A stretch of DNA of 52,028 nucleotides from Candidatus Parcubacteria bacterium (GCA_039796775.1 JBDKJD010000006.1:1-52028); one strand, 5' to 3'. Shown: positions 16,185 to 41,475, counted from the stretch's first letter. A program made the numbers and translations. Notes: generated from the letters alone by a model not told the origin.

Positions 16185-16284
16185 GACGGAGCAATAGAAG
16201 CACATGACCTGCGTCATGTGCGTGAGATGAGAATAGGGGTCGCAAGACTTTATCGAGAAGCTTGCGACGAGAAGCTTTGTGATA
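16185..16284 (+). repeat. tRNA-associated structured repeat, copy A
   Basis: GCACATGAC-CTGC-GTCATGTGC hairpin plus GAATAGGGGTCGC; a 25-nt block is identical to 38679-38703 on the minus strand. Confidence 0.8.
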
Positions 16285-16409
16285 GTTTTTTATGCTTACC
16301 ACAAGAAGTAGAATGAAAGAAATTAAAGGGGAGTAAGAGGGAATCTTGTCACAATAGAAAGAGTTGGCGGTTATTGTAGGTATAGGAAACCTTTTTCTAC
16401 ACAACAATC

Positions 16410-17360
16410 ATGCAATTCGTTATCTCTTTTTCAGCACTCCTTGTCTCATTTTTCTTGAGCGATGTTTCTGTCTACGCTCTCACTGAGAAGCAGACGGCGA
16501 GATTTTTTAATGGACCAACGGTTGTGGCGATTGGCTCAAGTGATGCGACATTTAACCTCTCTCAAGCCGTGTTGGCTAACATGACAGAAGAGGAAAAGAA
16601 GGCTGTTTATTTTGAATACTTTGAGACCAATCAGGTGTGTATCATGATCTACCCAACCCCAGAATATTGTCTTCCAAAGAAAACCACGGTTGGATCAACT
16701 ACGGTCACAGTGCCTTCTCTTAAGCCTAATACTTCGTATACGGTACGTTACAAAATTGATAACACGATACAGTGTGTAACTACCCCGTGTCCTATGAATG
16801 GTTTTGAGAGTTTGTCAGTAGAGTTCACTACCAAAGAAAAGGACGGTGCCCCAATGGTACATAGTCTTACTAAGAATCTGTGGCTTGGATCTCGCGGCGA
16901 AGAGGTGAGAATATTACAGAGTTTTTTGAAAGAAAGGGGATACTTTTCGGGTGATGTTACTGGATACTTCGGTGGTCTTACTGTGAAAGCAGTACGTGCG
17001 TATCAAAAAGAAAATAATATTACTCAATCAGGGACAGTTGGTCCTCTCACTAGAAAATCTATACAAAAGAAAATGGATAACGGAGCAAGTGTATCATCTC
17101 AAGGAGAACGTTTTGAGGGCACGATAACTGCATACTCTACAGCATGCTTTGCAGACGGTGAATGTAGTATCACTGTTGATGGGAAGAAAGTTATTACTAC
17201 TATTGGTTGGTCACAAGCTGTTGTTGGGAGATTGCTCGGAGTCGACAGTATCGGTGATATAGAAAACAAAATAGGACGTAATGCAAAAGTGTATGCTAAG
17301 AAAACAGAAGGAGGGTATACGCTCTATGGCAGCAAAGAATACTTCGTAGAAGTACGTTAA
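16410..17360 (+). CDS. Secreted protein with Fn3-like region and peptidoglycan-binding domain (PG_binding_1)
   Basis: Signal peptide; LKPNTSYTVR; LWLGSRGEEVRILQSFL...TGYFGGLTVKAVRAYQ...GTVGPLT. Confidence 0.8.
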   Translation: MQFVISFSALLVSFFLSDVSVYALTEKQTARFFNGPTVVAIGSSDATFNLSQAVLANMTEEEKKAVYFEYFETNQVCIMIYPTPEYCLPKKTTVGSTTVTVPSLKPNTSYTVRYKIDNTIQCVTTPCPMNGFESLSVEFTTKEKDGAPMVHSLTKNLWLGSRGEEVRILQSFLKERGYFSGDVTGYFGGLTVKAVRAYQKENNITQSGTVGPLTRKSIQKKMDNGASVSSQGERFEGTITAYSTACFADGECSITVDGKKVITTIGWSQAVVGRLLGVDSIGDIENKIGRNAKVYAKKTEGGYTLYGSKEYFVEVR

Positions 17361-17476
17361 TAGCGAGCCTGTGTATAACCCTTCTTATCAAGGAGGGAAT
17401 ATTCTCCTACACTTAAGAGGTACTCAAAATAATCTAGTATTTTTGACACAGTTACTAATTAATATATATTAATACA

Positions 17477-17992
17477 ATGAAAAAATATCTTATCGTTTCT
17501 GGAATAGCTTTGACTAGTGTTATGTTTTCACTTGCAGAAACCGAAACAGCACCACTTCCTGTCAAAAAAGGAGAAGGAGAAATAAAGAAAGTTCAAATGA
17601 TGCAAGCTTCTATGAAGGAGAATATGATGAAAGATGGCATACTTCCAGCACCTCTTACAGGAGATGTGACTAAGGACGCTCAGATCAAAGCTCTTCACGA
17701 AGAAATGGAAAAGAAGATAAAAGCACTTCGTGATGAATATCAGACTAAGATAAAAGCTATAGTTGGAGACACAAAACCCATGAGAGCTACTTCTTCTAAA
17801 ATGATGATGAAGAAAGAAGAAATGATGAATGCTACTTCATCCAAACCAGGGATGATGCGAGGTGAGAAAAACGGTGTACCATTTAGAGACAATACAGGTA
17901 TGCCAGGAAAGAGAGAAGGGCAACCTGAAGTAAGAGGGACCTCTACCGAAGCTGTGAAGCGAGGATTCTTTGATCGAATGTTCGAGAGATAA
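17477..17992 (+). CDS. Secreted Met/Lys-rich hypothetical protein
   Basis: Signal peptide, short coiled coil, low-complexity tail. Confidence 0.7.
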   Translation: MKKYLIVSGIALTSVMFSLAETETAPLPVKKGEGEIKKVQMMQASMKENMMKDGILPAPLTGDVTKDAQIKALHEEMEKKIKALRDEYQTKIKAIVGDTKPMRATSSKMMMKKEEMMNATSSKPGMMRGEKNGVPFRDNTGMPGKREGQPEVRGTSTEAVKRGFFDRMFER

Positions 17993-18074
17993 TTAAGTAG
18001 GGCGCTCTAATAGTATTCGTATACTACGACAAAAGACCAATTTTGGTCTTTTGTTTTGTTATACTTTGCATATC

Positions 18075-18368
18075 ATGAAATCTTTCAGAATAAAAAGTAA
18101 ACTTTTTAGATATTACTCCGAAAAAGCGTCGTGGTACTTTCTGCCGATTGATAAAGAGATAGCTGATAGTATAAAAGTTTTGAGTATCAGAAGAGGATTC
18201 GGTTCAGTGAGAGTTACTGTGACCATAGGAGAGACATTATTTGCTACCTCTATTTTCCCAGATAGTCGATCAAAAGGATTCTTGTTACCAGTCAAAAAAT
18301 CGGTAAGAGATAAGGAGAATATTGATGACGGGGATATTGTTGAGTTCGTTATTGATCTAAGTGTTTAA
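18075..18368 (+). CDS. DUF1905-family protein
   Basis: WYFLP...RGFGSVRVTVTIG...TSIFPD...LLPVKKSVR; start placed at ATG 18075. Confidence 0.8.
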   Translation: MKSFRIKSKLFRYYSEKASWYFLPIDKEIADSIKVLSIRRGFGSVRVTVTIGETLFATSIFPDSRSKGFLLPVKKSVRDKENIDDGDIVEFVIDLSV

Positions 18369-18431
18369 ATGCCTTCTTAGGTGTTTGTGATTTTATTTTG
18401 CACTTATGAGTATAGTGTGCGAGGATTATAC

Positions 18432-19706
18432 ATGATGGTATTAAAAGATTTATCAATATCTGTGAACTACGATGTGATTGTTATAGGAGGAGGGCCATCT
18501 GGGATGATGGCTGCAATTGTAGCTGCTTCACATGGAGCAAAAGTTCTCATACTAGAAAAGAATGCACGTTTAGGAGAGAAATTACGTATCACAGGTGGTG
18601 GTAGATGTAATATTTTAAATAAAGAATTAAACACACAGATACTACTTAAGAAGTATGGCAAAGGTGAGCAATTCCTCTACTCGCCATTTTCTGTATTCGG
18701 TGTTGGTGAGACGATTAGCTTTTTTGAATCATTAGGAATTTTTATTAACGTTGAAGCAAACGGTAGAGCATTTCCTATATCAGAGAAGGCTGGAGATGTG
18801 GCGGAGGCACTCATAAAAGCATTGATACACAAAAAAGTAGACATACTCTATAACGCGCCAGTATCAAAGGTGCTATATCATGATGGTGTTATAGAAGGCG
18901 TGTGTTCAGGTACTTCTACGTATAAAGCTAAGGAATATATCTTGGCAACAGGCGGTATCTCTCACAAAGAAACAGGATCAACCGGAGACGGGTTTATGTT
19001 TCTTGGACAGCTAGGACATGTGGTTGTTCCACCATCTCCTAGTATTGTACCTATCAAAAGTGATGATGCATGGATACATGCGAGTGCTGGCTCATCGATA
19101 GATAATGCTAAAGTTACCTTTTTTTGTGATGATAAAAAATCTTTTAGTGTGAAGGGGAGAATGCTCTTTACTCATTTTGGAATATCTGGGCCCGTTATAT
19201 TAAATAGCGCATACAAAGTAAGAGAGCTTCTGTATGGAGGATATGTTACTGCGGTGATGGACATGTTCCCGACAAAAGATTATCCGATACTTGAGAAAGA
19301 CATGCTTATTATTTTTGATTCAAATAAAAACAAAATTTTTAAAAATATTCTAAAAGACATAGCACCTGTTGGTATACATAAAAGCATAGCGCTTCTTCTT
19401 GAAGCAAAAGGGATTGACACTAACAAGAAGGTGCACTCAATTACAAAAGAAGAACGCTCTAAGATCATTCACCTGCTCAAAGCTGCTCCATTTAGTATTG
19501 AGGGGCTTATGGGATTCGACAAAGCAGTTGTCGCAGATGGGGGAGTGTCACTTGAAGAGATAGACACACGAACGATGAGATCAAAACTCATCAAGAATCT
19601 TTTAATAACAGGAGACTTGCTCAATATTAATAGACCGTCTGGTGGCTACTCTCTGCAATTATGTTGGACAACAGGATATGTAGCTGGGATACATGCATAT
19701 AATTAA
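18432..19706 (+). CDS. HI0933/BaiN-family FAD-dependent oxidoreductase
   Basis: GGGPSGMMAA; GEKLRITGGGRCN; ATGG; LFTHFGISGP; GGYSLQLCWTTG. Confidence 0.9.
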   Translation: MMVLKDLSISVNYDVIVIGGGPSGMMAAIVAASHGAKVLILEKNARLGEKLRITGGGRCNILNKELNTQILLKKYGKGEQFLYSPFSVFGVGETISFFESLGIFINVEANGRAFPISEKAGDVAEALIKALIHKKVDILYNAPVSKVLYHDGVIEGVCSGTSTYKAKEYILATGGISHKETGSTGDGFMFLGQLGHVVVPPSPSIVPIKSDDAWIHASAGSSIDNAKVTFFCDDKKSFSVKGRMLFTHFGISGPVILNSAYKVRELLYGGYVTAVMDMFPTKDYPILEKDMLIIFDSNKNKIFKNILKDIAPVGIHKSIALLLEAKGIDTNKKVHSITKEERSKIIHLLKAAPFSIEGLMGFDKAVVADGGVSLEEIDTRTMRSKLIKNLLITGDLLNINRPSGGYSLQLCWTTGYVAGIHAYN

Positions 19707-19891
19707 AGAGAAGCACAAAAAGAGCGATCCAGAATAAGTGCTTTTCGATATACCTTAATGCTATTGATTGCATCTGATGTAGCAACACCTGTCACAAAGT
19801 ATCTCCCTTAACTGTTATTCTAAGTAAGAGCACAGCACTCTCATAAGCGTTAGAGAGTACTTGTTTCGCTTGATATAATCATTATACATCT

Positions 19892-20704
19892 ATGAAAAAA
19901 ATCGGAATTATTACTACATTAGTAGGTCTTAGTATGTCATCTGCATTTGCTTCTAATGACATTCTCAAGATGCCAGATTTTGTTGCTGTTTCGGCTGTAT
20001 CTCATATTGAAGAAAAAGCTGAAAAAGTAGCCTCATCTACACCATTTGTTCGTTTACAAAATAGAGGGATTCGTATCATCGACGAACGCCTAAAAGCATT
20101 AGCAAGCAACAGTGATGCTATTAATAGAAATAAAAATCTCACAGCAGAGCAAAAGACAGTTCTCCTTAGTCAATTGAATAACAATTCGACAGCGCTCACC
20201 ACATTGCGAACTTCTGTCGCTTCTAGTACAGATGCGACCAGTACAAGAGCTCTCATCGATTCTGTGTACAAGGATTATCGTATTTATGGAATTGTTATTC
20301 CAAAAGTACGTCTCGAAGCTAGAGTGTATCAACTCAAAGCGCACACAGTTAAGCTCTCAGACACTTTCCTCAAAATTCAATCAAAGATTGATGATCACAA
20401 AGCAAAGGGGCATGACGTAACTGCTTGGCAAAAGAATCTTGATGATGCCAAGACAAAAGTCGCAGGGCATATGTTTAGCTTAGATGAAATTCTCAAGAAA
20501 ACAGCAACACTTACTCCAGCTAATTACGGAACATCAACACGTGTGACTATACAAGAAGTTAATACTCAGATACAAACTATACAAAAAGACTTCCGTACTA
20601 TATCAAGTGGAGTCCGTTCAAAGGCTGGGAAAGATGATATGAAAAAGATAAAGCAAGAGAGAATGCAATCTACAGCAACAGGAACTCCTGGAGTTGTGAG
20701 ATAA
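19892..20704 (+). CDS. Secreted helical/coiled-coil hypothetical protein
   Basis: Signal peptide; long amphipathic helices. Confidence 0.7.
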   Translation: MKKIGIITTLVGLSMSSAFASNDILKMPDFVAVSAVSHIEEKAEKVASSTPFVRLQNRGIRIIDERLKALASNSDAINRNKNLTAEQKTVLLSQLNNNSTALTTLRTSVASSTDATSTRALIDSVYKDYRIYGIVIPKVRLEARVYQLKAHTVKLSDTFLKIQSKIDDHKAKGHDVTAWQKNLDDAKTKVAGHMFSLDEILKKTATLTPANYGTSTRVTIQEVNTQIQTIQKDFRTISSGVRSKAGKDDMKKIKQERMQSTATGTPGVVR

Positions 20705-20772
20705 TATCATTTGCAACATATCACATGATTGCTACTATCATAGTAGTGTAAGAGATAGATAGAGCAAAAGAA

Positions 20773-20815
20773 GTGCAACAAAAAGCGCAGGCGTAGCCTG
20801 CGCTTTTTGTTGCAC
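20773..20815. terminator. Bidirectional intrinsic terminator
   Basis: GTGCAACAAAAAGCGCAGGC-GTA-GCCTGCGCTTTTTGTTGCAC between convergent genes. Confidence 0.85.
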
Positions 20816-20841
20816 CCATCAAACTTACATACCTCACTTTT

Positions 20842-21456
20842 TTAATGAGCAATAGTCATAGCAATAACAGACATAGCGCCATGTTTGAGAAGTATATTCC
20901 TTGCCTCTTCTAATGTGCTTCCTGTTGTGGTGACATCATCGATGAGAATGTATGAGCCTTGTATGTTCTTTTTTGTAACAGCGAAGGTTCCCTTATTATT
21001 AGATAAACGCTCGCTTCTGTTTTTGGTTTTGACTTGGCGAGGGGTTATTTTGGTTTTTGTAAGAAGAGTGTGTTCTACAGGAGCTGATGTTTGTTCTGAT
21101 ATTATTTGGGCTATATATGTTGTTGAATTATATCCACGCAATAATCGTCGAAATGGATGCATTGGTATAGGGATAATCGTAACCTCTTCCTTGGATAGAG
21201 AGATAGTTCGCACGATATCTTCTGTGAGAGATCTGATAAGATCTTTTCTATGGAAAAATTTTATAGCATGTAACAGTTTACGCACGCGCTTGTCTTTGAA
21301 TGAGTAAGAACTATATATCCACGAGTGAGTTTGTGTATAAGGTTTATCAAAGGAGGCGACGCATTTCTGACATAGTGGAGTTCCTTCTTGATTACATAGA
21401 TAACAAGAGCTTGGGAAAATGATGTCATATAGTTTTGAGATGAACGATACACTCAT
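20842..21456 (-). CDS. comF: ComF family competence protein (double zinc ribbon plus phosphoribosyltransferase fold)
   Basis: FPSSCYLC...LCQKC; IPIPMH..R...RGYN; LIDDVTTTGST; start placed at ATG 21456 (21462 is an alternative). Confidence 0.9.
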   Translation of the reverse strand: MSVSFISKLYDIIFPSSCYLCNQEGTPLCQKCVASFDKPYTQTHSWIYSSYSFKDKRVRKLLHAIKFFHRKDLIRSLTEDIVRTISLSKEEVTIIPIPMHPFRRLLRGYNSTTYIAQIISEQTSAPVEHTLLTKTKITPRQVKTKNRSERLSNNKGTFAVTKKNIQGSYILIDDVTTTGSTLEEARNILLKHGAMSVIAMTIAH

Positions 21457-21522
21457 CCACATATGGTAACTAAAAAGATAATCTAAGAGTAGTGTTACAT
21501 TGTATACTAATGTGTATAAGCT

Positions 21523-22590
21523 ATGTTTGATTTTGTTAAAAAAGAAGAGTTCGCTCAAGCTGTTGGTGTAGACATAGGTACTTCTTCTGTCAAAATAGTT
21601 CAACTACGAAAAGAAAAGAACAGAATAATTCTCGATACGTACGGAGAAGTTGCTCTCGGACCCTATGCCTCTCTTAAAGTTGGACAAGCTGTACATCTTG
21701 GGGAAGAAAAAATGATCGAGGCTATTAATGATTTGATGAAAGAAGCCAAAGTAACTTCCAAGAACGCAGTGATTGCGATTAATCCGTCAGGTGCATTCGT
21801 ATCTCTTGTAACTGTTCCAAAAGTTGGTGATGAAGAATTGAGAACAATGATGCCAATAGAGGCGAGAAAGTATATTCCAGTACCACTTACTGAAGTGCAA
21901 ATGGATTGGTGGCATATACCAGCATCTGTGAGATTAAAAGGAGACAACTCGTCTGTTTCTGTGGTATTAGCTGCGGTCAGCAACACTACACTCATGGAAT
22001 ATGATAGTTTGGTTAAAAAATTAGACTTGCATAATGTTGAATATGAGATACACGGGTATAGTCTTTTACGAAGTGTTCCACCTCATACTCACAAAATGGT
22101 CTTGTATGTGGATATTGGAGCACAGACCACCGTCTTGTCTCTCGTGTATCAAGGGATAGTGATGGATATGCATGTTATCAGTAGAGGGTCTCAAGACGGC
22201 ACTGTTCAATTATCAAAAGCACTTTCTGTAACATTAGATACAGCAGAAGAGTCGAAGCGCGTTTTTGGATATAACGGGGATCAATCGAATCCGTACTTTA
22301 AAGAAGTATTAGAACTTTCTAGTTATCCACTGTTTGGAGAGGTTGCGAGACTATCTTTGATGTTTGAAAGAAAGTATAATCAAACTATAGAAGGAATAAT
22401 TTTGACAGGAGGAGGGGCGAAGGTTCCAGGCTTGCTTCAAGTGTATAGCAAGACCGTGCATGTGGCAGGAAGAATAGCCACACCGTTTGAACAAATAGTT
22501 GTACCAGAATTTTTGGCAGAGATGATGGAAAAAGTTGGTCCAACCTATTCAGTTGCTATCGGATGCGCCCTCAAGAAACTTATTTCTTAA
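21523..22590 (+). CDS. pilM: Type IV pilus assembly protein PilM
   Basis: VGVDIGTSSVKIVQL; EARKYIPVP; VDIGA; LTGGGA. Confidence 0.92.
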   Translation: MFDFVKKEEFAQAVGVDIGTSSVKIVQLRKEKNRIILDTYGEVALGPYASLKVGQAVHLGEEKMIEAINDLMKEAKVTSKNAVIAINPSGAFVSLVTVPKVGDEELRTMMPIEARKYIPVPLTEVQMDWWHIPASVRLKGDNSSVSVVLAAVSNTTLMEYDSLVKKLDLHNVEYEIHGYSLLRSVPPHTHKMVLYVDIGAQTTVLSLVYQGIVMDMHVISRGSQDGTVQLSKALSVTLDTAEESKRVFGYNGDQSNPYFKEVLELSSYPLFGEVARLSLMFERKYNQTIEGIILTGGGAKVPGLLQVYSKTVHVAGRIATPFEQIVVPEFLAEMMEKVGPTYSVAIGCALKKLIS

Positions 22591-22599
22591 AGACCCTCT

Positions 22600-23394
22600 A
22601 TGCCATTTTCATTTAATCCAACATCAGGAGCTCAGAATCAATCAGGAGCACAACAAGGTGGTCCTACTTTTGGTTTACAGTCAAACACATCAGGTGTCGA
22701 AGATGTAACATCATCAGATGTCCCACAAGCTCCAGAATCGCCTTTTTTGTTCATGGCTCAACGTGGTCAAGATAAGACAGCTATGGCGTATGTGCAGATA
22801 ATAGCAGGGACACTCTTTGCTGTTTCGATTATAGCTACCCTGGTTTCATTTGGGTATATGAAATATTTAGAAACAGTTCTAGAGTCTAAGAGGGCGGAGA
22901 TACAAGACAAAGAAACAACATTAAAAGAATATCCGTACGCTCTCATGAGAGAGGAATACGCCAAGCTTAAGCTCCTAGAAGGACTTCTTAAAGAATATGC
23001 AGCAGCGAGAACACCGCTTCTTCTTCTTGAGAAGGTGGTAGAAAATGAAGTCACTTTTAGTAATTTTAGCCTTAATCGTGACGTCAATGGTAAATACACT
23101 ATTCAATTAACAGCACTCACTAATAATTATAAAGCCGTAGTGCAGCAATTAGATGCTCTTCGTCTTACTGAGTTCACAAAAGTAGTATCAGGTCAAAAAG
23201 TAGACAAGATAGATGAAAACAGTCAAAGTAAATTAGGTAAAATCAAACTCGAGATAAGTGCCCCAGTTGCTATACAAGGAATATTGCCGAGTCTCGCAGT
23301 ATTTGAAAACATCGTCGACTCAGAAAGAGCTGCTCCGGTAGCGAACACTACTACCATCTCAGGCACTTCTTCATCTATAACACCAGCACCATAA
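22600..23394 (+). CDS. PilN-like pilus alignment protein
   Basis: Single TM followed by a coiled coil; position between pilM and pilO. Confidence 0.6.
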   Translation: MPFSFNPTSGAQNQSGAQQGGPTFGLQSNTSGVEDVTSSDVPQAPESPFLFMAQRGQDKTAMAYVQIIAGTLFAVSIIATLVSFGYMKYLETVLESKRAEIQDKETTLKEYPYALMREEYAKLKLLEGLLKEYAAARTPLLLLEKVVENEVTFSNFSLNRDVNGKYTIQLTALTNNYKAVVQQLDALRLTEFTKVVSGQKVDKIDENSQSKLGKIKLEISAPVAIQGILPSLAVFENIVDSERAAPVANTTTISGTSSSITPAP

Positions 23395-23398
23395 CAGT

Positions 23399-23986
23399 AT
23401 GTCACCAAAATTACTTACAATTCTATTTATCTTAACCCCAGTAGTGTTATACACAGCAGTACTTAAACCTATGTATGTTGGTGAGGGGGTTGTGTGGACT
23501 CCCGAGAATACTATCCCAGCGTTACAGACAGTTATTGATGAACATGATTCTACATTGGCGAATATTGATACAGTAGTGAGAGACATTACTAAGCTTAATA
23601 GCGATTATGAGAAACTTGATCAAGCAGTGCTTGCTCAAAATAATTATATGCTAGGTACAGGTATTGATGTTGCGAGATTAAGAGCAGAAGTTGTGAGTAT
23701 CGCTTCAAAACAAGGAGTAGCGATAGAAGGTCTCGAGGTTGCTAAAGACAGAAGAGGTGCCAAAAACGCAGATTTTTATAATGTCTCTTTTTCTGTGAAA
23801 GCTCGTTATCCAGCATTTAAGAATTTAATAGCTGCGTATGAGAGAAATATGAGATTCTACACAATAGACAGTCTCTCAATTGCTCGCCAAAAAGAAGAAG
23901 CGACAGTAACCGGGACTAATAATCTCGACAAAGACGCCCTTAATATTTCGGTTAAGTTTAGAGTTTATCAACTTAGAGCAAAATAA
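23399..23986 (+). CDS. pilO: Type IV pilus protein PilO
   Basis: TM, coiled coil and SFSVKARYPAFKNLIAAYERNMRFYTIDSLSI. Confidence 0.7.
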   Translation: MSPKLLTILFILTPVVLYTAVLKPMYVGEGVVWTPENTIPALQTVIDEHDSTLANIDTVVRDITKLNSDYEKLDQAVLAQNNYMLGTGIDVARLRAEVVSIASKQGVAIEGLEVAKDRRGAKNADFYNVSFSVKARYPAFKNLIAAYERNMRFYTIDSLSIARQKEEATVTGTNNLDKDALNISVKFRVYQLRAK

Positions 23987-23997
23987 TTATTTCAAGT

Positions 23998-24312
23998 ATG
24001 AATATCTCCATCTCATTAATCAAAGATAGCGCAGTCGGACTCATTGTTATAGGTATCATAGGGTATTCTCTTTTTCTCGGGTATGGAGTATTTTTTAGAG
24101 AGCCAGCAGTGTCATCTTCAGTGAGCGCATCATTGCTTGGTCCTCGCTTGCAGGCTGCAGCGCTTATTGTTCAAGAGAAAGTTTCATTCTCACCTAACAA
24201 TCTTACATTTACCAAGACACCACTTTATACTTCTTTTATAGATCCTCCAGAAATAGTTCCGCTCAGTGATAAACGTGGACGAGATGATCCTTTCGTCCCG
24301 TTTAATCAGTAG
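23998..24312 (+). CDS. Small membrane protein of the pilus cluster (PilP-like position)
   Basis: TM helix and C-terminal GRDDPF motif. Confidence 0.55.
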   Translation: MNISISLIKDSAVGLIVIGIIGYSLFLGYGVFFREPAVSSSVSASLLGPRLQAAALIVQEKVSFSPNNLTFTKTPLYTSFIDPPEIVPLSDKRGRDDPFVPFNQ

Positions 24313-24315
24313 TGT

Positions 24316-26252: not shown

Positions 26253-26302
26253 GCCCCTTTGTCCACTAGCAACTATTAACTATTAACTATAAACTGGTTG
26301 AT

Positions 26303-31691: not shown

Positions 31692-31693
31692 GT

Positions 31694-32404
31694 ATGAAAT
31701 ATTTTTTGTCACAATGTTCAAATATAAAACACCTAAAAGGTCTTACGCTTCTTGAGACGCTTGTTGCTATTTTGGTTATTAGTCTGACAATAATCGGACC
31801 ACTTTCTTTTTTGGCGACATCTTCTTCTTATGCCAAACAAACAAGGGAAGCAATCGTTGCTACCTATTTAGCAGAAGAAGCTGCTGAACTATTACAAAAT
31901 AGATATGACTCTCTTTATGTTGCATGTGTTAAACAGCCGGGAGTTACTCCATGTACCCCAGACTTTGGAGAGTCTACTCCAGGACAAATAGCATGGAGAT
32001 TATTCAAGGAGCGTATGAGTTCAAGAGACGGTCACCCTTCGTGTTTTATTGATGATACTCAATCCGAGTGTGCTTTTGATTCTGAACATATGAAAGTAGT
32101 CGCAACTACAACACCCGCACGTTTTGCTACAACTGATACAACATGTAAGCGATTAATTGCAGCGACTGTGGGAGGTATTACAACTTATGTATGTAGCGGT
32201 ATTCCTTCTCGGCTTGTTTCAGCAACTAAAGGATTATTATATGAGCGTAGTGTATATTTGGAACATATACCAACCTTTGAAGCAACCGCAAGAAATGAAC
32301 AAGATCATGATGATATACGTATTGTAGTGAGTGTCAGATATAGAGCAGTGAATGGTACAGAACGAGAAGCCAAAATTAGTAGATATCTCCATCCGCGACC
32401 TTAA
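31694..32404 (+). CDS. Minor pilin (PilV-like)
   Basis: KG/LTLLETLVAILV; ATYLAEEAAE. Confidence 0.8.
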   Translation: MKYFLSQCSNIKHLKGLTLLETLVAILVISLTIIGPLSFLATSSSYAKQTREAIVATYLAEEAAELLQNRYDSLYVACVKQPGVTPCTPDFGESTPGQIAWRLFKERMSSRDGHPSCFIDDTQSECAFDSEHMKVVATTTPARFATTDTTCKRLIAATVGGITTYVCSGIPSRLVSATKGLLYERSVYLEHIPTFEATARNEQDHDDIRIVVSVRYRAVNGTEREAKISRYLHPRP

Positions 32405-32409
32405 CAATT

Positions 32410-35090
<2,681 letters not shown>

Positions 35091-35097
35091 TCTCATT

Positions 35098-35382
35098 ATG
35101 CAATTTTCTAAAGAAGACCTCAAAAAACTTTCTGAATTATCAAGAATATCTATAACAGGAGACCAGGAAGACAAAATGCTTAAAGATATGCAGGCTATTT
35201 TGGGATATGTTTCTGAGATTAACACCACAGAAGGGGAGACAGTTAAAGAAAAAGAATCTCATTATAACGTTGTAAGAGAAGATATTGTAACTCATCAAAG
35301 TGGAGATAACACAAATGCAATTCTAGATGAGGCCCCAAATGTTCTTGATGCTTATGTCAAAGTAGCTCAAGTGTTGAAATAG
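35098..35382 (+). CDS. gatC: Asp/Glu-tRNA amidotransferase subunit C
   Basis: LSELSRI...ILGYV...REDIV...AP...YVKV; directly precedes gatA. Confidence 0.9.
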   Translation: MQFSKEDLKKLSELSRISITGDQEDKMLKDMQAILGYVSEINTTEGETVKEKESHYNVVREDIVTHQSGDNTNAILDEAPNVLDAYVKVAQVLK

Positions 35383-35419
35383 TCGTTAGTCTATAGTTAT
35401 TAGAAATACACAATATATT

Positions 35420-36832
35420 ATGCAAAAAACGTTACGACAAATACAAGAAGAGTTAAAAACCGGAGCAACGACGGTTGAGACCCTTGTTGAAAATGCAAAA
35501 AAAACTATTAGAGATAAGGATGGAGATGTGCATGCGCTTCTTGGACTATACTCAGACACACTTATTGATGAACAAATCAAAAAAGCACAAAGCATGTTCT
35601 CTAATAATACCGCAACACTTCTCACAGGTGTGCCCATAGTTCTGAAAGATAATATTGTTGTAAAGGGTGAGAAGGCTACAGCTGGTTCTAAGATTTTAGA
35701 AGACTATGTGTCACCATATGATGCTACTGTTGTTAAAAAGTTAAAAGAAGCAGGAGCTATAGTATTAGGACGAGCTAATATGGACGAGTTCGCAATGGGG
35801 GGCTCAACTGAGAATTCAGCATACGGTGTAACCAAAAATCCTCATGACATAACACGTGTAGCAGGCGGGTCATCAGGTGGGTCAGCAGCGGTAGTTGCAT
35901 ATGAGGGTGTACCTATTTCTCTTGGATCAGATACAGGTGGGTCAATTAGACAACCGGCGTCTTTTTGTGGAATCGTAGGACTTAAGCCGACATATGGTGC
36001 AGTATCACGCTATGGACTTATGGCCATGGGGTCATCACTTGATCAAATAGGGCCTTTCGCTCACAACGTAGAAGATGCAGAAATAGTGTTTGATATTATT
36101 AAAGGCAAAGATCCTCTTGATGCGACATCTATTGATGCGACAGAATATACAAACAACAACAAAGAATTAAAAAAGAAGATTGGGGTTCCTTGGTCATTTA
36201 TACGAAGAGAAGGAATAGATAAAGATGTTTTATCTAATTTTGAATTATCAATCGAATCCTTACAAAAGAGTGGATATGAAATTGTTGATATCACAATCAA
36301 AGATCTTGAGAAGACTCTCTCAGTCTATTATGTTGTAGTATTTGCTGAGATTTCTTCTAATATGGCTCGTTATGATGGTATTCGTTATGGCCTCTCTGTT
36401 CCTGATGAAAATGTAATCAAAGGGTACTTTGCTACTCGTACACAAGGGCTAGGTGATGAAGTAAGAAGAAGAATATTGCTCGGTACTTATGTACTTTCGA
36501 GTGGATATTATGATGCATATTACAATAAAGCAAATCTAGTGCGTGACATGCTCCGTCTTGAATTCAAAAAAGTGTTCGAAACAGTAGACGCGATAGCGAT
36601 GCCAACATCTCCAATACCAGCATTCACAATAGGTGAGAAGTCACACGATCCACTCGCGATGTATTTGGCAGATATTTTTACTGTTCCGGTTAATATTGTT
36701 GGAGTTCCTGCGATTTCCATCCCTTCAGGGAAAACAAGTGAAGGATTACCTCTGTCTCTCCAACTACTTGCTCCACATTTTAGAGAAGATGTTTTATTCA
36801 CTATCGGCAAAGACTTCGAAAGGCTATACTAG
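35420..36832 (+). CDS. gatA: Asp/Glu-tRNA amidotransferase subunit A
   Basis: [14 protein letters not shown]; GGSSGGSAA; [12 protein letters not shown]; [20 protein letters not shown]. Confidence 0.97.
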
Positions 36833-36915
36833 AAGACAGCAAAGAGCTTTTAGCTTTTAGCCTTTAGCTTTTGAAGAGGCTAATAGCTAGAAGCTAACAG
36901 TTAACAGCTGTTATC

Positions 36916-38298
36916 ATGTATTCCCTTTCTATCGACTACCTATTTAATCGTATTTATGATGTCCTGTTGTGGATTAAATACACATGGCTTTTTGTTATTA
37001 AAAGGGAAGATGTTGATGCGTACATAAAAAGTGTTGAAGCCAATGATTGGGACGGGTTGCGGGATAGAGGGTGGTTAACCGAAACGACAAGCACTCTCCC
37101 TGTGCCTGAAGCTGAGGTTCATGTATCGCTATGGCAAAGATTACAAGAAGCTGTTGGATTAAAAGTCAGAGACTCTGATCGTGATGGCGCTCCAGATGTT
37201 GTTGACCCTAGACCATATGATAGCGACAATCTCTCTAAGAGCGATATTAAGGAGCGATACGAAGAGTATTATTCTTTTTCTGATCATGTGAGAGATATAT
37301 TTGGTATTTCACCAAAAGATTCTGACAAAGATAGTGTGCCGGATAGTTATGAGAAGGTAATCAACACTGACAAGGATAATCCAGACACTGACAATGATGG
37401 ACTATTAGATGGTCAAGAATTAGCCAAAGGGACTGATCCTCTTAACCCGGATACTGACGGAGATCTTGTGTTGGATGGGCGAGACGAAGATCCGCTTAAT
37501 AGCTTCGTCTCTTCTCTCGGTGAAGATTCTGATAAGGATGGAGTGAGTGACAAGATGGAAAGCTTTTTGGGATCTGACAGTACTAAGATAGATACAGATG
37601 GTGATGGTATTACAGATGGTATGGATACGTATATTCTTGATCCAGAAAATATCTCAAATGGCCTCCTGGGCAAAATAGCAGAGAATGGTAATGATCTTTT
37701 GTTCGCAATTCAGAATCCAGTAATTCATTTCATGTCTAATGTTCTTGGATTGTTTATTATCGCTATTATGTGTTGTCTTGTGTATGCTTCGGTTAGATGG
37801 TTCTCTGTTTTCTTGGAAGGGCTTAATCATTATGAACATCATTTTCATCATGATGACCATAGTCATTCTCCGCATCATGTTATTTCTCATACACAAGATG
37901 TGTCATCTCATCATGGTCATGCGATTGATAATCTTCCTGTTGGCGAAGTAAAGAGTGTCGAGACATACTCTCTCGCAGAAGAGCAGAATAATCACCCTAA
38001 ATTTGCGATCATCGAAGGGTATATGAATAGTGAAACTGAAACGTTGTGGAGAATCGGAGTGATGGAAGCAGATAACTTACTCCACGAAGTGTTGAGAGAG
38101 AAAGGGTATCAAGGCGAGACATTAGGTGAGATGCTCAAAGCTGCAAGTTTTAGAACTATTGATTTAGCGTGGGATGCTCACAAGATAAGAAATAGAATAG
38201 CCCATGAAGGACTTGATTTTCAATTAACTGAACGAGAGGCAAAGCGCGCATTTGTTCTCTATGAATCAGTCTTTAGAGATTTGAAGGTGATTAGATAG
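36916..38298 (+). CDS. Membrane protein with thrombospondin type-3-like Ca-binding repeats, His-rich linker and C-terminal HEPN-like (RxxxxH) domain
   Basis: Multiple DxDxDG repeats; one internal TM helix; HHFHHDDHSHSPHH; AHKIRNRIAHEG. Confidence 0.7.
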   Translation: MYSLSIDYLFNRIYDVLLWIKYTWLFVIKREDVDAYIKSVEANDWDGLRDRGWLTETTSTLPVPEAEVHVSLWQRLQEAVGLKVRDSDRDGAPDVVDPRPYDSDNLSKSDIKERYEEYYSFSDHVRDIFGISPKDSDKDSVPDSYEKVINTDKDNPDTDNDGLLDGQELAKGTDPLNPDTDGDLVLDGRDEDPLNSFVSSLGEDSDKDGVSDKMESFLGSDSTKIDTDGDGITDGMDTYILDPENISNGLLGKIAENGNDLLFAIQNPVIHFMSNVLGLFIIAIMCCLVYASVRWFSVFLEGLNHYEHHFHHDDHSHSPHHVISHTQDVSSHHGHAIDNLPVGEVKSVETYSLAEEQNNHPKFAIIEGYMNSETETLWRIGVMEADNLLHEVLREKGYQGETLGEMLKAASFRTIDLAWDAHKIRNRIAHEGLDFQLTEREAKRAFVLYESVFRDLKVIR

Positions 38299-38344
38299 TA
38301 AGTGACTAGTCGCTAGTGATTAGCTGAGAGGTTCTTTTTACTCG

Positions 38345-38760
38345 TTGTGGGTGATCAGAAGATCGTACTGTGAACGTGCGATTAGTAAATCGTGCTGTGA
38401 AGTAGAGCAGGAATCGCCTCTCCTTCACTGTATTCAGTCGAGATCCAACATTTTCATAGTCGCTTCGCTCTTTGAAAATGTGGGCCTTCGGTTCGATTCC
38501 GTTCTTTGAGCCTGTACAAGAATACTATAAAAGCCACCGACTACGATGGCTTTTATAGTATTCTTGTTTGCGGACGATCAGAAGATAGTACTGTGAAGTA
38601 GAGCAGGAAGTTCGGTCACAAGACTACCTCCTCACTTCGTTCGTCAGAGATAGTCTCGCGACCCCTATTCGATTCCTGACGCACATGACGCAGGTCATGT
38701 GCTCCCAGTACAGACAAGTAAAAAGAAAAACCCTGATTACAGAGTTTTTCTTTTTACTTG
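38345..38760 (-). repeat. Tandem array of tRNA-3'-end-derived structured repeats downstream of tRNA-fMet (includes copy B at 38606-38703)
   Basis: Recurrent TTCCTGC/TCCGCAA tRNA-end mimics; hairpins 38714-38761 and 38516-38567; three copies of a ~22-nt motif at 38353, 38380 and 38576. Confidence 0.75.
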
Positions 38761-38831
38761 TTGCGGAGGCAGGAATCGAACCTACATTCCGAGGTTATGA
38801 GCCTCGTGAGTTACCTTTACTCTACTCCGCT
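38761..38831 (-). tRNA. tRNA-Met (CAT), probably initiator
   Basis: AGCGGAG/CTCCGCA-A with a 1:72 mismatch; anticodon arm CGAGG-CTCATAA-CCTCG; T-loop TTCGATT. Confidence 0.92.
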
Positions 38832-38938
38832 ATCTTTTATTTTTATTATTTGTACGATAACGTAATTATAATATCATGATTTTACAACTTTACAAAATCT
38901 ACTTATAAAAAAAGAACTAATGATATAATGCTACATAT

Positions 38939-39621
38939 ATGTCAAAACCTATACAAAAAGAGAAAGCTTTAATCTTAAGACGAAAAGGCTTAAGTGTAGG
39001 AGATATAGCTGCTAAGCTCAAAGTATCAAAAAGTACTGCCAGTACTTGGTGTAGCTCAATAAAACTTACGACAAAGCAAAGAGAAATTTTAAAAAATAAT
39101 ATGATAAAAGCAGGGTATGCTGGCAGACAGAAAGGTGCTGATGCTAATCGTAAGAAAAAAGAAATTCAGATTTTAGAAGCAAAAGAGCAGGCTTCAAAAA
39201 GTATTAAAAATTATCAAAAAGAGACTTCTTAATGCTCTTCTTTGGTTTATATTGGGGAGAAGGTAGTAAAAATTCAGAGAGAAAATTTGTATTCACTAAT
39301 AGTGATCCGTATGCAATCCTCTGTACCATTAAAGCGTTAGAACTTTTTGGTATTAGTAAAGAGTCGGTGGTTGCCGCTGTCTATATTAACAGTAGTCATA
39401 AATATAGGGTCACGATTGTTGAAAAGTTTTGGCAAAATTTATTACAGATAGATAAAGCTCAGCTGAGAAAAACTATTTTTGTAAATACTAAAACTAAAAA
39501 AGTGTACTCTAACACTAATGAGTATTATGGAGTTTTGAGATTGATGATTAAAAAAAGTTCTAAGACAAAAGATTTCATGATGGCAGGGATTGAGCATATT
39601 AGATTGAATTTGAATAAATGA
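38939..39621 (+). pseudogene. HTH plus LAGLIDADG-like protein split by a single-base frameshift (or a homopolymer sequencing error)
   Basis: N-terminal HTH (GLSVGDIAAKLKVSKSTASTW). One extra A in the A5 run at 39206-39210 fuses the ORFs as IKKLSKRDFLMLFFGLYWGEGSK...FTNSDP. Confidence 0.7.
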
Positions 39622-39656
39622 CCATTTTATGGTATAAAATGTTGTACATTACATAT

Positions 39657-39730
39657 GTCGGCGTAGCTCAGTTGGTTAGAGCGCATCACTCATAAAGATG
39701 AGGTCGGTGGATCATTCCCACCCGCCGACA
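39657..39730 (+). tRNA. tRNA with CAT anticodon (elongator Met or Ile2) with atypical T-loop
   Basis: Acceptor GTCGGCG/CGCCGAC-A; canonical D-arm; CTCATAA loop; T-arm GGTGG-ATCATTC-CCACC. Confidence 0.85.
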
Positions 39731-39813
39731 CAAGTTAAGTAAACCTATCTTCACTTAGAAGGTTAATAGCACGAAGGAATTTGGATATATAAACCAGAAG
39801 GGTATACTTTCCC

Positions 39814-39872
39814 TCTAATGTCTAATGTCTAATGTCTAATGTCTAATGTCTAATGTCTAATGTCTAATGTCT
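39814..39872. repeat. Heptamer tandem repeat (TCTAATG)x8
   Basis: Eight perfect copies plus TCT, ending 4 nt from the stop codon of the convergent gene. Confidence 0.95.
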
Positions 39873-39876
39873 GCTC

Positions 39877-41049
39877 CTACGCCTCCCACTTTTTGTTCAC
39901 CAGTTCTTTTTCTTTTTTGGCTATATCTACAAAGCCTCTATACATACCAGATTCTTTTAGAATTTTTCTAGCGTAACTATGATATGGATAAAGAGGACAA
40001 AGATTGGAACCTTTTTCTCGTAACGTTACAGGGACATGAATAGTTTTTTCTTTGTTCTTTTCATTCATGAAGTAAAGAGAAAACGAAACGGAAGTGAGGA
40101 GTGCGAGCTCTGCAGTCTTTTCTATGCCAAGTTCTTTATAAAAAGAGAAGAGGGGGTGGAGCCCTGATGACTCTTGTTGAGTAGGGAGATTGAGTTTAAC
40201 TATCTTCTTGGCTTTGTCTCCACCTAGTGTGAGAGTGACACCTTTTATTTTCCATGACATAAGCGGTGTGCCGCTTTTATGAGAACCAAAGTCAAAAGAA
40301 TCTTTTTTGAAGTTACTCATGTCATAGGACTCTTCTCTTTCTAAGTAACCATCATTACAGACGACACGGAGAAAGGTATCTAAGAGAACTATCTTATCAT
40401 ACTTACTACCGCTAAAAGATATCAATGCTTCGGTCGTATCTTTTATATATACAACACGTAGGAATTCTTCTTTTTTGCTTCCGATTTCTCTTGCTTTGAG
40501 GGAGTAGTATAGCGTGTTACCAAGTATTGTGTGGGTCGGATCATATTCTTTCCCAAGGCTTTCTTTATCTAGAATGCGTTTATATTCTTTGGTGAGTTCT
40601 GTTATCTTAAATTCAGCATCTTTGAGATCGAGGTCCTTTGTCTCATAGAGCATATAGCTAGGCTTCACAAAAAAAGAATGTAGGAATAAAACATCCTCGA
40701 ATATATCGTCTTTATGAAAGAGATAATAATAGAGAGCTGTATCTTCTTTTGATGTGCAGTCAATCGTTGTTACAGAAGATACATTTCTTTTTTTAAGAAC
40801 GAGAGGGAAGAGATACTCTCCATGCACGGAAGCGGGTGTGGCTATGGTTGTGAGTTCTTCATCTATTTCAATTTTTTGTTCTGGGGAGAGTGAGTCATAA
40901 AAATCTTTGAGGACATTAGTAACTGTTTTTCTTGAAGATTGTTCGGTGAGCTCAAAGAGGGCGATGATGTCATGTCTTTTGTAGAGCTCAGTTATGAGAG
41001 GATAAGCGTGTATTTTTTTGAAAAATGCTTTTGGTTTGAAAGTTGCCAT
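39877..41049 (-). CDS. Hypothetical cytoplasmic protein, about 390 aa
   Basis: Long ORF with ordinary composition; start placed at ATG 41049 (MATFKPKAF); no motif recognised. Confidence 0.75.
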   Translation of the reverse strand: MATFKPKAFFKKIHAYPLITELYKRHDIIALFELTEQSSRKTVTNVLKDFYDSLSPEQKIEIDEELTTIATPASVHGEYLFPLVLKKRNVSSVTTIDCTSKEDTALYYYLFHKDDIFEDVLFLHSFFVKPSYMLYETKDLDLKDAEFKITELTKEYKRILDKESLGKEYDPTHTILGNTLYYSLKAREIGSKKEEFLRVVYIKDTTEALISFSGSKYDKIVLLDTFLRVVCNDGYLEREESYDMSNFKKDSFDFGSHKSGTPLMSWKIKGVTLTLGGDKAKKIVKLNLPTQQESSGLHPLFSFYKELGIEKTAELALLTSVSFSLYFMNEKNKEKTIHVPVTLREKGSNLCPLYPYHSYARKILKESGMYRGFVDIAKKEKELVNKKWEA

Positions 41050-41242
41050 AGTATAGAGAGCGGTGTGTGAAGAGTGAATTTTATACAATAATTCAGATAG
41101 TGTAGCACATGAAGATAAGTGTTTATGATAAATCTGTAAGATAATAGTTTAAACAAGAGGCCTTTAATTTTTTTAAAAATAATGTATAATAGGGGGACAA
41201 AACTTTTTTTCAAAGAAAGAAGAAAGTTTTTGAAACATATAC

Positions 41243-41316
41243 GCAGCGGTAGCTCAGCTGGTTAGAGCACTGCCCTGTCACGGCAGGGGTCGTGGGTTCG
41301 AGTCCCATTCGCTGCG
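41243..41316 (+). tRNA. tRNA-Asp (anticodon GTC)
   Basis: GCAGCGG/TCGCTGC-G; anticodon arm CTGCC-CTGTCAC-GGCAG; T-loop TTCGAGT. Confidence 0.95.
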
Positions 41317-41319
41317 CAA

Positions 41320-41475
41320 AAACAAAAATCTCAGGCTTCTTGCCTGAGATTTTTGTTTATCTTGCAAAGCGAACCAAGAAGTCTCACCTGCGTGAGACTT
41401 CGGGACGAGAATAGGGGTCGCGAATCTACTTCGAGGAACAAAGTGACGAGGTAGATTTGTGACCAAATCCCATCG
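41320..41475 (+). repeat. Post-tRNA hairpin plus tRNA-associated structured repeat, copy C
   Basis: 17-bp stem with TTCTT loop (41320-41358); GAAGTCTCAC-CTGC-GTGAGACTTC; GAATAGGGGTCGC...GTGACC. Confidence 0.8.

Follow-up and report, generated by a model that had tools for sequence, protein, structure and literature searches.

The window analysed here is a 52,028-nucleotide (nt) stretch of DNA from Candidatus Parcubacteria bacterium (GCA_039796775.1, JBDKJD010000006.1:1-52028). The source genome (G000) comprises 770 kb in 13 contigs (labelled C1, C2 and so on), contains 36 tRNA genes and is 95.9% complete. Five tRNA genes were identified in the window by ARAGORN, and directly 3' of three of them, on the same strand and joined to the tRNA by a hairpin (H), lies a copy of a structured element, referred to below as the module. 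The copies behind tRNA-Ser(gct), tRNA-Met(cat) and tRNA-Asp(gtc) are designated A, B and C, respectively (Table 1); an earlier note on this DNA had placed all three in the orientation of their tRNA, which is borne out by the ARAGORN calls and the sequence.

The core of the module consists of a stem of 8-9 base pairs (bp) with the loop CTGC (P1), two linker bases, a variable segment of 7-10 nt (t'), the bulge GAATAGG, a long stem (P2) and a variable 3' flank. At the foot of P2, GGTCGC pairs with GTGACC through a conserved G.U pair. The 13-base motif GAATAGGGGTCGC, described as invariant in the earlier note, occurs exactly three times in the window, at 16231, 38670 (-) and 41409, a count reached by none of 100 shuffles (shuffle mean 0.31). 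The fold z-scores of copies A, B and C are -4.4, -5.9 and -6.9, respectively. Preceding the core is a further segment, a', which is antisense to the acceptor 3' strand of the tRNA.

Table 1. Coordinates of the three module copies, their host tRNA genes and related features in the window
Feature	Position	Strand	Evidence or remark
tRNA-Ser(gct), host of copy A	16052..16140	+	ARAGORN, Rfam tRNA
Copy A hairpin H, element-borne A-tract/stem/T-tract, terminator-like	16141..16183	+	Sequence; resembles hairpin after tRNA-Asp
Copy A a', antisense to tRNA 3' strand; extends hairpin H into tRNA	16185..16191	+	Sequence, alignment
Copy A core	16197..16298	+	Model R1 77.7 bits, E 4.9e-17; fold
Copy A P1 (loop CTGC)	16200-16221	+	
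Copy A t'	16224-16233	+	
Copy A bulge GAATAGG	16231-16237	+	
Copy A P2	16238-16284	+	
tRNA-Met(cat), host of copy B	38760..38831	-	ARAGORN, Rfam tRNA
Copy B hairpin H	38715..38759	-	Sequence; same loop type after tRNA-Leu(tag), contig C9
Copy B core	38600..38711	-	R1 96.7 bits, E 6.8e-22; fold
Copy B a'	38711-38702	-	
Copy B P1	38702-38681	-	
Copy B t'	38678-38671	-	
Copy B bulge	38670-38664	-	
Copy B P2	38663-38614	-	
Copy B terminal GTGAC	38619-38615	-	
Copy B displaced tRNA 3' piece	from 38614	-	2 extra nt
tRNA-Asp(gtc), host of copy C	41243..41317	+	ARAGORN, Rfam tRNA
Copy C hairpin H	41318..41358	+	Sequence
Copy C core	41364..41478	+	R1 84.3 bits, E 1e-18; fold
Copy C a'	41364-41373	+	
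Copy C P1	41378-41401	+	
Copy C t'	41402-41408	+	
Copy C bulge	41409-41415	+	
Copy C P2	41416-41464	+	
Copy C GTGAC	41459-41463	+	
Copy C displaced tRNA-Asp 3' piece	41464-41478	+	Genus-typical T-loop
DUF1653 gene, 82 amino acids, between copy C and second end module (cargo position)	41499..41747	+	Pfam PF07866, E 5e-21
Second tRNA-Asp-directed end module	41767..41935	+	Long-type body, cut by another repeat
Second module, motif X (pseudo-3'-end)	41767-41795	+	
Second module, hairpin	41796-41836	+	
Second module, a'	41837-41847	+	
Second module, P1-like stem	41850-41872	+	
Second module, t'	41875-41884	+	
Pseudo-tRNA-Glu (positions 1-54) with diverged family member in T-loop	14058..14232	-	Upstream of intact tRNA-Glu(ctc) 13959-14032 (-)

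Simple pattern scans of the source genome recovered about 19 copies, some of them 'long', with an extra hairpin between the bulge and P2. A covariance model (R1) was built from 11 short copies of this genome on an RNAalifold structure of 28 pairs, 16 of which show compensatory changes. R1 gives 23 matches in the source genome at E<=1, 13 of these at E<=1e-16; the matches to the window copies cover 16197-16298 (+), 38600-38705 (-) and 41378-41478 (+), with E-values of 5e-17 to 7e-22. Among 61 distinct copies from the source and other genomes, 93.8% of the pairing cells hold a pair, compared with 76.0% in shuffles and 35-43% when the partner is slid, and 24 of the 28 pairs change on both sides, none of 500 shuffles reaching any of these measures, in an alignment that was fitted to R1 and is therefore biased in favour of structure. 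These figures uphold the statement of the earlier note that sequence changes while pairing is kept, and the stems it gave are also correct: the first is GCACATGAC/GTCATGTGC in A and B and GAAGTCTCAC/GTGAGACTTC in C, and the second stems of B and C are as it described them. The copies behind tRNA-Phe and tRNA-Cys represent further subtypes with a different P2 foot, which covaries with the usual one.

G.U is found at one P2 pair position in 56 of the 61 copies and at a second in 38; the opposite strand would have C-A mismatches at these places. It is therefore the tRNA-sense strand that folds, whether as RNA or as single-stranded DNA; the core, which is matched to its tRNA, is under selection in this strand. 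No family for the element was found in Rfam 15, in agreement with the lack of a described relative in the earlier note: the whole window yields only the LOOT RNA and the five tRNAs at gathering scores, and E-value scans of copies A, B and C return only generic microRNA-type hairpin matches of 13-29 bits, compared with gathering scores of 47-117. Self-cleaving ribozymes and the T-box, two further candidates, were dropped for want of Rfam support. A literature search, made largely at the level of abstracts, found no description of the module; the 224 motif consensus drawings of PMC5737381, possibly relevant to its novelty, were not compared.

After GTGAC, the modules of the source genome are followed by a direct repeat of the upstream tRNA, which starts at T-loop position 56 and runs 2-3 nt beyond the 3' end. 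The repeat is perfect over 21 nt at tRNA-Tyr, 20 nt at tRNA-Leu(tag), 15 nt at both tRNA-Lys(ctt) and tRNA-Gly(gcc), and 13 nt at tRNA-Arg(gcg), and many perfect repeats of about 19-22 nt were found in other Patescibacteria. The sense echo of the T-arm that the earlier note had seen in B and C is this repeat of the tRNA from position 56 in a degenerate form; in copy A, where the displaced tRNA piece is gone, there is none. The 'tRNA-end mimics' in which that note had embedded the elements are not mimics, the downstream part being the displaced original 3' end and the upstream parts antisense copies.

The nature of the inserted unit was examined at the tRNA-Asp gene, which was compared across 18 loci of congeners. 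Seven of these are empty, the tRNA being followed by a terminator or immediately by a gene, and eleven are filled, with at least five P2 subtypes, in short and long forms, at this one site. The terminator that directly follows tRNA-Asp in the empty locus L036 is found after the displaced piece in the filled loci L019 and L020, where a different hairpin adjoins the tRNA. The comparison of empty and filled loci therefore defines the inserted unit as tRNA position 56 to the 3' end, the unit's own hairpin, a', P1, t', the bulge, and P2 to GTGAC, entering at 55/56. Judged by sequence alone, T-loop entry is equivalent to insertion behind the tRNA with a 20-nt target duplication. Copy A, copy C, the second tRNA-Asp module and filled tRNA-Asp loci in congeners have one hairpin loop type in common, copy B and tRNA-Leu(tag) another; since hairpin types recur behind different tRNAs, the hairpin travels with the element. 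The T-loop of the source tRNA-Asp is unlike that of all 18 congener tRNA-Asp genes, and the displaced piece keeps the genus-typical loop. Entry into the T-loop is favoured by the recurring hairpins, by the new loop of the source tRNA-Asp, to which t' of the second tRNA-Asp module is perfectly antisense, against the old loop of its displaced piece, and by the tandem arrays of unlike subtypes in which each copy is followed by its own displaced piece. Four versions of the tRNA-Asp acceptor stem were observed within the one genus (loci L016-L037), even among loci with the same downstream terminator; this unusually fast turnover may be linked to the replacement of the 3' end.

The t' segment, extended by the three bases that open the bulge, reads as the reverse complement of tRNA positions 54-63. 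In the 36 copies with an adjacent tRNA, its match to positions 56-65 of the own tRNA is 8.58 of 10, compared with 5.77 for tRNAs of other amino acids; a match of at least 8 is reached by 33 of the 36 copies and by 5.3% of 1038 control pairs. The match to the displaced piece is 6.69, t' being nearer to the resident tRNA in 23 copies, equally near in 13 and nearer to the displaced piece in none. When bulges were allowed, the resident tRNA gave t' the more stable duplex in 21 of 33 distinct copies and the displaced piece in none, the two being equal in the other 12, with mean energies of -12.98 (resident), -9.92 (displaced) and -7.11 kcal/mol (non-cognate); 11 of these 33 copies are tRNA-Asp loci of one genus, so that the copies are not independent. 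Part of the difference between resident and displaced pieces arises from 1-2 extra bases just past the junction in several displaced pieces, which may reflect the crossover position rather than decay.

The a' segment prolongs the palindrome of the hairpin into the acceptor strand, producing an inverted repeat of up to ~28 nt (L034). The antisense echo of the tRNA 3' end described in the earlier note corresponds to this segment in A (7 nt) and C (6-10 nt), but fails in B, where the segment pairs with the downstream piece. In 25 of the 33 copies, 83-95 nt separate the bulge from the end of the tRNA. As a' pairs with the genomic trailer and not with the CCA end, the idea of a primer-binding site for a reverse transcriptase was dropped. 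The only reverse transcriptase gene of the source genome (C3:2679-3299, +; a 358-amino-acid frame) shares a 17-kb stretch with a recombinase gene and with an orphan module of the long type (C3:17186).

In the source genome, at least 16 of the 36 tRNA genes have a member of the family directly downstream, namely the genes for tRNA-Ser(gct), Met, Asp, Val(gac), Tyr, Lys(ctt), Leu(tag), Leu(caa), Arg(gcg), Gly(gcc), Ser(gga), Cys, Arg(tcg), Phe, Gly(tcc) and Lys(ttt), the last with a variant without a clear P1; two have a member upstream. R1 matches were present in all 24 sampled congeners, at 1 to 25 per genome; of 16 other families of the order, 9 gave matches, which were weaker. When a species-representative genome collection was scanned with a loose pattern, 117 stretches were recovered, most of them chance hits to unrelated phyla (several hundred chance matches are estimated for 18 fixed bases and a gap of 31 lengths in 596 Gb). 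Of 80 loci tested with R1, 27 retain matches (50 in all), and all 27 are titled Saccharibacteria, Paceibacterota, Parcubacteria, Nomurabacteria, Gracilibacteria or plain 'bacterium'. The genus itself is placed in Saccharibacteria, because the Saccharibacteria-titled locus L055 gives the same rows as locus L021 of the congener G062. The proximity to tRNA genes by which the earlier note had proposed to judge the family extends to other Patescibacteria: among 44 R1 matches, 23 begin 15-79 nt past a tRNA on the same strand and five are second copies at 156-249 nt, while four lie at 0.9-2.5 kb and 12 have no tRNA in the available stretch.

Modules also occur at a distance from the tRNA, beyond cargo genes. 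The window contains such an arrangement behind copy C, where a DUF1653 gene is followed by the second tRNA-Asp-directed module, the t' of which is a perfect antisense of the T-loop and stem of the source genome's tRNA-Asp; the hairpin H of copy C has an inverted match, 96% identical, at 41797-41848. This second module is preceded by a motif, X, that occurs five times in the source genome (in the window at 41767-41795, and at C1:157146, C1:156334, C4:54484 and C8:31950, all minus strand). Motif X has a T-arm-like start (GTTC) and a length of ~20 nt, and in three of the five occurrences it is followed by the last 6-12 nt of the acceptor strand of the target tRNA, directly before the hairpin of a cargo-bearing module. 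It may represent the 3' part of a pseudo-tRNA; at locus L177, described below, an upstream stretch can pair with the end of X like an acceptor stem. The body of the second tRNA-Asp module is cut by a ~155-nt repeat (41934-42090) with copies of 92-96% identity at C4:4021-4176 (-), C2:132337-132489 (+) and C1:110549-110700 (-) and of 80-84% in congeners, which is probably another small mobile repeat.

Larger islands were found at other tRNA genes. At tRNA-Tyr of the source genome (C8), two near-identical units of hairpin plus module, 7.9 kb apart, enclose a type I restriction-modification system, genes for T5orf172 and Hypoth_Ymh proteins and a C-terminal fragment of a large serine recombinase; the locus looks like two integrations, one of them reduced by interior deletion. 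A module with a 3' piece of tRNA-Ser(tga) lies 8.5 kb from tRNA-Ser(tga), the interval containing an AbiEii-WYL gene, a large serine recombinase of 441 amino acids and a NUDIX gene. The source genome encodes four full large serine recombinases, and the open reading frame of one with 509 amino acids (C1:25857-27386; L041 1358-2887, +) ends inside tRNA-Asn (C1:27345-27419, -), with an overlap of ~42 nt. The best NCBIfam profile matches of the recombinases are CcrB, CcrA and XisF, all under the cut-off.

Two congeners contain islands with both borders. In the first (L177), inserted at tRNA-Gln, a recombinase open reading frame of 493 amino acids on the other strand overlaps the tRNA by 33 nt and is followed by 6.5 kb of cargo encoding a Phage_CRI rolling-circle Rep, an EcoRI-type methylase, a GmrSD-HNH protein and an FtsK-gamma protein. 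Its distal end consists of a pseudo-3'-end (motif X and the acceptor strand), hairpin, a', P1, t' and core, which R1 scores at 88.8 bits; beyond the core, 17 nt of tRNA-Gln are repeated perfectly. In the second (L178), at tRNA-Ala, the recombinase has 519 amino acids and overlaps the tRNA by 63 nt, the cargo is 5 kb, and the distal end comprises X, hairpin, module (83.8 bits) and a 20-nt perfect repeat; beyond this repeat follow a single gene for 157 amino acids, X, hairpin, a module of another subtype and the 20-nt repeat again. Islands with a recombinase thus have the module as their distal end, and single-gene cassettes without one end in it as well. A recombinase, which the earlier note had advised looking for, is accordingly present as large serine recombinases standing at the island border in both relatives. 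The border type of the ssrA-specific genomic islands, with a large serine recombinase gene convergent with its target and overlapping the target's 3' end, is found at L177, at L178 and at the tRNA-Asn locus of the source genome.

The C-terminal residues of these recombinases differ with the state of the element: past the junction, the frame of L177 runs for 3 codons when integrated and 42 when the ends are joined in silico, and that of L178 for 14 and 10, respectively. A coding explanation for the conservation of the module was dropped, the joined-end recombinase frame being inconsistent between the two islands. Phage_CRI Rep matches were found in 6 of 53 congeners and not in the source genome. 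In G001, G003 and G008 they lie 1-1.5 kb from a recombinase match on one contig, so that, with L177, Rep adjoins a recombinase in four of the six Rep-bearing genomes, which argues that a single-stranded stage exists for some islands.

The window copies are probably cargo-less members of a Patescibacteria-wide group of integrative elements whose insertion point is the T-loop of tRNA genes, near position 55/56, with a large serine recombinase as the likely enzyme; that they are cargo-less derivatives follows from the presence of the same module at the end of recombinase-bearing islands of 5-6.6 kb in two relatives. A unit would enter the T-loop at ~55/56 and supply a replacement for the tRNA from position 56 to the 3' end together with its own terminator-like hairpin, after which it would continue with a' (antisense to the acceptor 3' strand), P1 with its CTGC loop, t' (antisense to the T-loop and the 3' strand of the T-stem), GAATAGG, and P2 to GTGAC. 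The original 3' end of the tRNA would be pushed downstream and decay there. In full-size relatives the module would close islands of 5-8 kb with restriction-modification and other accessory genes, and a CcrB-like large serine recombinase, encoded at the other border by a gene overlapping the tRNA 3' end, is taken as the putative integrase. Small copies might arise when the tRNA 3' end recombines with the acceptor copy linked to X and the interior of an island is thereby deleted, leaving the tRNA, hairpin, module and displaced piece; alternatively, they may be att (attachment site)-only units moved in trans. Candidate roles for the fold include the architecture of a single-strand att site, an origin for single-strand conversion, and a transcript.

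Of the three alternatives offered in the earlier note, a non-autonomous tRNA-targeting mobile element and a family of recombination sites are in substance supported, by the 7 empty and 11 filled sites among the 18 tRNA-Asp loci, the tandems of unlike subtypes, the cargo versions and the recombinase at the tRNA end in two relatives; its third, a cis-acting RNA that controls pre-tRNA folding, is a less likely possibility that leaves the cargo, arrays and empty sites unexplained. That note had missed the link to islands, as well as the fact that the post-tRNA hairpin and the present 3' end of the tRNA belong to the inserted unit.

Several observations weigh against the interpretation as integrative elements served by a serine recombinase. 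No recombinase is encoded within or beside the three window copies, which hold no gene, and 14 of the 53 congeners have no large serine recombinase match. The latter include G012, with nine module matches, and G059 and G062, in which the tRNA-Asp site is filled; all are 91-92% complete. Because of these genomes, the link between recombinase and module is not obligatory in their present state, and the recombinase was rejected as an obligatory partner for lack of strict co-occurrence; its absence, even from some module-rich genomes, is compatible with an origin of the small copies by deletion or by movement in trans. A scan of viral contigs gave seven pattern stretches and no R1 match, and neither an excised circle nor an empty allele was shown among the contigs of four DNA runs. 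At several tRNA-Asp loci the displaced piece is of a different acceptor type than the resident tRNA, on both strands, which simple replacement of the 3' end does not predict; a later homologous replacement of the block from the tRNA to t', or compensation, is needed here. Both tRNA-Glu loci show the opposite order to all other loci, with the interrupted pseudo-tRNA first and the intact tRNA second. Together with the mismatch of acceptor types, this reversed order suggests additional homologous exchange of the tRNA-to-t' block, and such exchange is supported by mosaic P1/P2 combinations (G000 and L016 share P1 but not P2). Finally, a double-stranded att site of a serine recombinase does not require 100 nt of covarying strand-specific hairpins, and that part of the element is left unexplained.

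The folded core might itself be the recombination or targeting device: a single strand, either an RNA or DNA exposed in replication or rolling-circle copying, would fold in such a way that the tRNA 3' segment is paired by a' and t', rebuilding a duplex copy of the target beside the conserved bulge and P2, with the antisense segments setting the tRNA. Folded integron cassette sites and the folded attachment site of filamentous phages are comparable in principle. Such a device would suit the strand-specific fold indicated by the conserved G.U pairs (56 and 38 of 61 copies), the preference of t' for the resident tRNA (21 of 33 copies stabler, 12 equal, never better with the displaced copy), the narrow 83-95-nt spacing to the bulge in 25 of 33, the extension of the hairpin palindrome by a' into the tRNA (~28 nt in L034), the cassette-like arrays with single genes, and the Rep gene beside the recombinase in L177 and close to it in three further congeners, four of the six Rep genomes in all. 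We nevertheless regard it as unlikely: an integron-type integrase is missing, the sole tyrosine recombinase being Xer-like, Rep occurs in only 6 of 53 congeners and not in the source genome, homologous co-inheritance of the tRNA-to-t' block would equally keep t' matched, and no serine recombinase is known to use folded or guided sites. A reading of the end module as a programmable targeting device, in which antisense segments of ~10 nt (against the T-loop and T-stem) and ~7-10 nt (against the acceptor strand) between conserved hairpins specify the tRNA gene entered, is similarly speculative; the module would then work either as a single-stranded att site, folded so as to recreate the target as a duplex, or as a transcript guiding a large serine recombinase.

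It is less likely still that the module is a non-coding RNA kept by the host, either a tRNA-like small RNA (acceptor-like stem, P1, extended T-stem and P2) produced by read-through or a cis-acting trap for the 3' half of the pre-tRNA, spread by duplication and not by integration. The downstream part can fold as a three-way junction whose 3' strand is the tRNA 3' end, the covariation and G.U pairs are compatible with RNA, sequence motifs are kept across classes, and the tRNA-Glu loci hold a module within an otherwise complete tRNA copy with promoter-like sites upstream. However, no promoter-like site was found between the hairpin and P1 in A, B or C, where a terminator-like hairpin precedes the module (the post-tRNA hairpins went uncalled in the promoter/terminator scan, their T-run being inside the stem), a' pairs with the genomic trailer and not with the CCA end, and the displaced 3' strand, which the fold would require, decays. 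Empty sites, tandems of unlike subtypes and cargo versions are unexpected for such an RNA, as is a copy number that varies from 1 to 25 R1 matches among congeners. Even more remote is the interpretation of the elements as hairpin-ended single-strand transposons of the IS200/IS605 or REP type, with a Y1 HUH transposase and internal guide pairing at the cleavage sites. The order of the right end of IS200/IS605 elements (guide, hairpin, matched flank) resembles the element in outline, and an IS200-type gene is present in the source genome (C1:6626-6919, -), but it is short by ~31 N-terminal model positions. Moreover, no more than 24 of 53 congeners have a Y1 transposase, those without one including G024 (25 module matches), G019 (15), G018 (12) and G016 (13) and several module-rich genomes that are nearly complete; the islands carry serine recombinases instead, and this family is not known to produce a 20-nt target repeat. 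A Y1 transposase as an obligatory partner was rejected for the lack of strict co-occurrence, and the element is not assigned to IS200/IS605 or REP/RAYT. Neither is it a miniature inverted-repeat transposable element, since its left end is a tRNA-specific 3' segment, its right end the conserved GTGAC and its duplication ~20 nt long. Elements with an IS110 bridge RNA or a TnpB/IscB guide RNA do not apply, these enzymes being absent from the source genome (no match to PF07282 or PF01548).

Among known systems, integration by a serine recombinase recalls the ssrA-specific islands of Dehalococcoides (DsiB, CcrB-like; PMC3146451). As described in that report, a large serine recombinase is likewise encoded beside the left attachment site (attL), on the reverse strand and overlapping the 3' end of the target; insertion is midway along the T-loop with a ~20-bp direct repeat of the 3' end, tandem arrays form downstream of the target, and a conserved motif lies just upstream of the distal repeat (PMC3146451). 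Integrase-less islands of this kind were interpreted there as cis-mobilizable (PMC3146451), in which they are like the window copies. In contrast, their target is transfer-messenger RNA (tmRNA) alone, compared with more than 15 different tRNAs here, in a different phylum, and no hairpin module, target-antisense copies or cargo-less units of 150-250 bp were found described there, the word 'hairpin' occurring 0 times in its main text (PMC3146451). The tycheposons of Prochlorococcus (10.1101/2020.12.28.424599) are reported as cargo elements at tRNA genes of streamlined genomes, with partial tRNAs at the distal end, successive integrations that push older elements outward, and degenerate remnants, all as found here. 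As reported there, 910 of 937 use tyrosine recombinases and a minority large serine recombinases; in contrast to the elements described here, no structured end module ('hairpin' occurs 0 times in the main text) and no target-antisense segments were found described (10.1101/2020.12.28.424599). Cis-mobilizable elements and solo remnants, like the small copies, have both borders and no genes, but the small copies are far smaller (~150-250 bp), numerous (at least 16 of 36 tRNAs) and possess a conserved covarying fold.

The module also resembles the attC site of integrons, which is a strand-specific imperfect hairpin with unpaired bases at the 3' end of the cassette, conserved in structure over sequence. 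Like the module, attC has paired outer boxes, one arm of which lies beyond the crossover, and accompanies arrays of single-gene cassettes at one primary site. It differs in that the outer box of the module is tRNA-specific and not a common core, in the additional P1 and a', and in the primary site, which here is the T-loop of a tRNA. No integron-type integrase was found in the source genome, where the best matches of the sole tyrosine recombinase are XerD, XerC and XerA; the integron-integrase models score it at 116.6 (cut-off 265) and 73.2 (cut-off 435).

Outside the three copies, the locus 14093-14182 that the earlier note had added to the family is a diverged minus-strand member inside the pseudo-tRNA-Glu, although it gives no R1 match at E<=1. 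The same pseudo-tRNA layout is found at tRNA-Glu(ttc) (C7:8440-8680, +), the 3' end being degenerate in both. Promoter-like sites lie near tRNA-Glu(ctc), before the pseudo-tRNA (14342-14313) and before the intact tRNA (14076-14047). In one of the DNA runs, X1, a contig (depth 4.3, compared with 13.7 beside it) joins 38494 to 38757 and omits 262 nt that contain copy B and its downstream terminator; it may represent a variant allele or a relative and is too weak for an empty allele to be called. On contig C4, a T-arm with an acceptor-like 3' end (2870-2895, +) precedes a module (2951-3053) at a position where ARAGORN calls neither a tRNA nor a tmRNA; it may be a fragment of a tRNA or the end of a tmRNA that went uncalled, and ARAGORN found no tmRNA in the source genome. 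A LOOT RNA (Rfam RF03000, 95.9 bits) is encoded at 6494-6616 (-), divergent from and 130 nt upstream of a CcrB-like large serine recombinase gene for 439 amino acids (6745-8064, +). No LOOT match was found beside three further recombinase genes (C1, C4 and the C8 fragment) or in C3:1-18000, and LOOT RNA was rejected as a relative of the module, to which it is unrelated.

Elements that integrate into tRNA genes are known, and the unusual feature here is a structured end that is matched to the target. Patescibacteria have tiny genomes with single-copy tRNA genes, and more than half of the tRNA genes of the source genome carry the module, either directly or at the end of an island. The islands hold defence genes, including type I restriction-modification, AbiEii, GmrSD and methylase genes. 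Through its covariance model, the module provides a signature of sequence and structure for island borders, cassette arrays and past integrations in uncultured lineages. Each insertion swaps the last 21 nt of a tRNA, and the elements may drive the turnover of the tRNA-Asp acceptor stem, of which one genus has four types. If the antisense segments set the target, site choice by a serine recombinase would be specified by nucleic acid, or a new kind of folded att site would be represented, with consequences for recombinase biology and tool-making; if the end module were a programmable device, the tRNA genes of Patescibacteria would serve integron-like cassette arrays as primary sites, and the specificity, encoded in nucleic acid, would be set anew for every tRNA.

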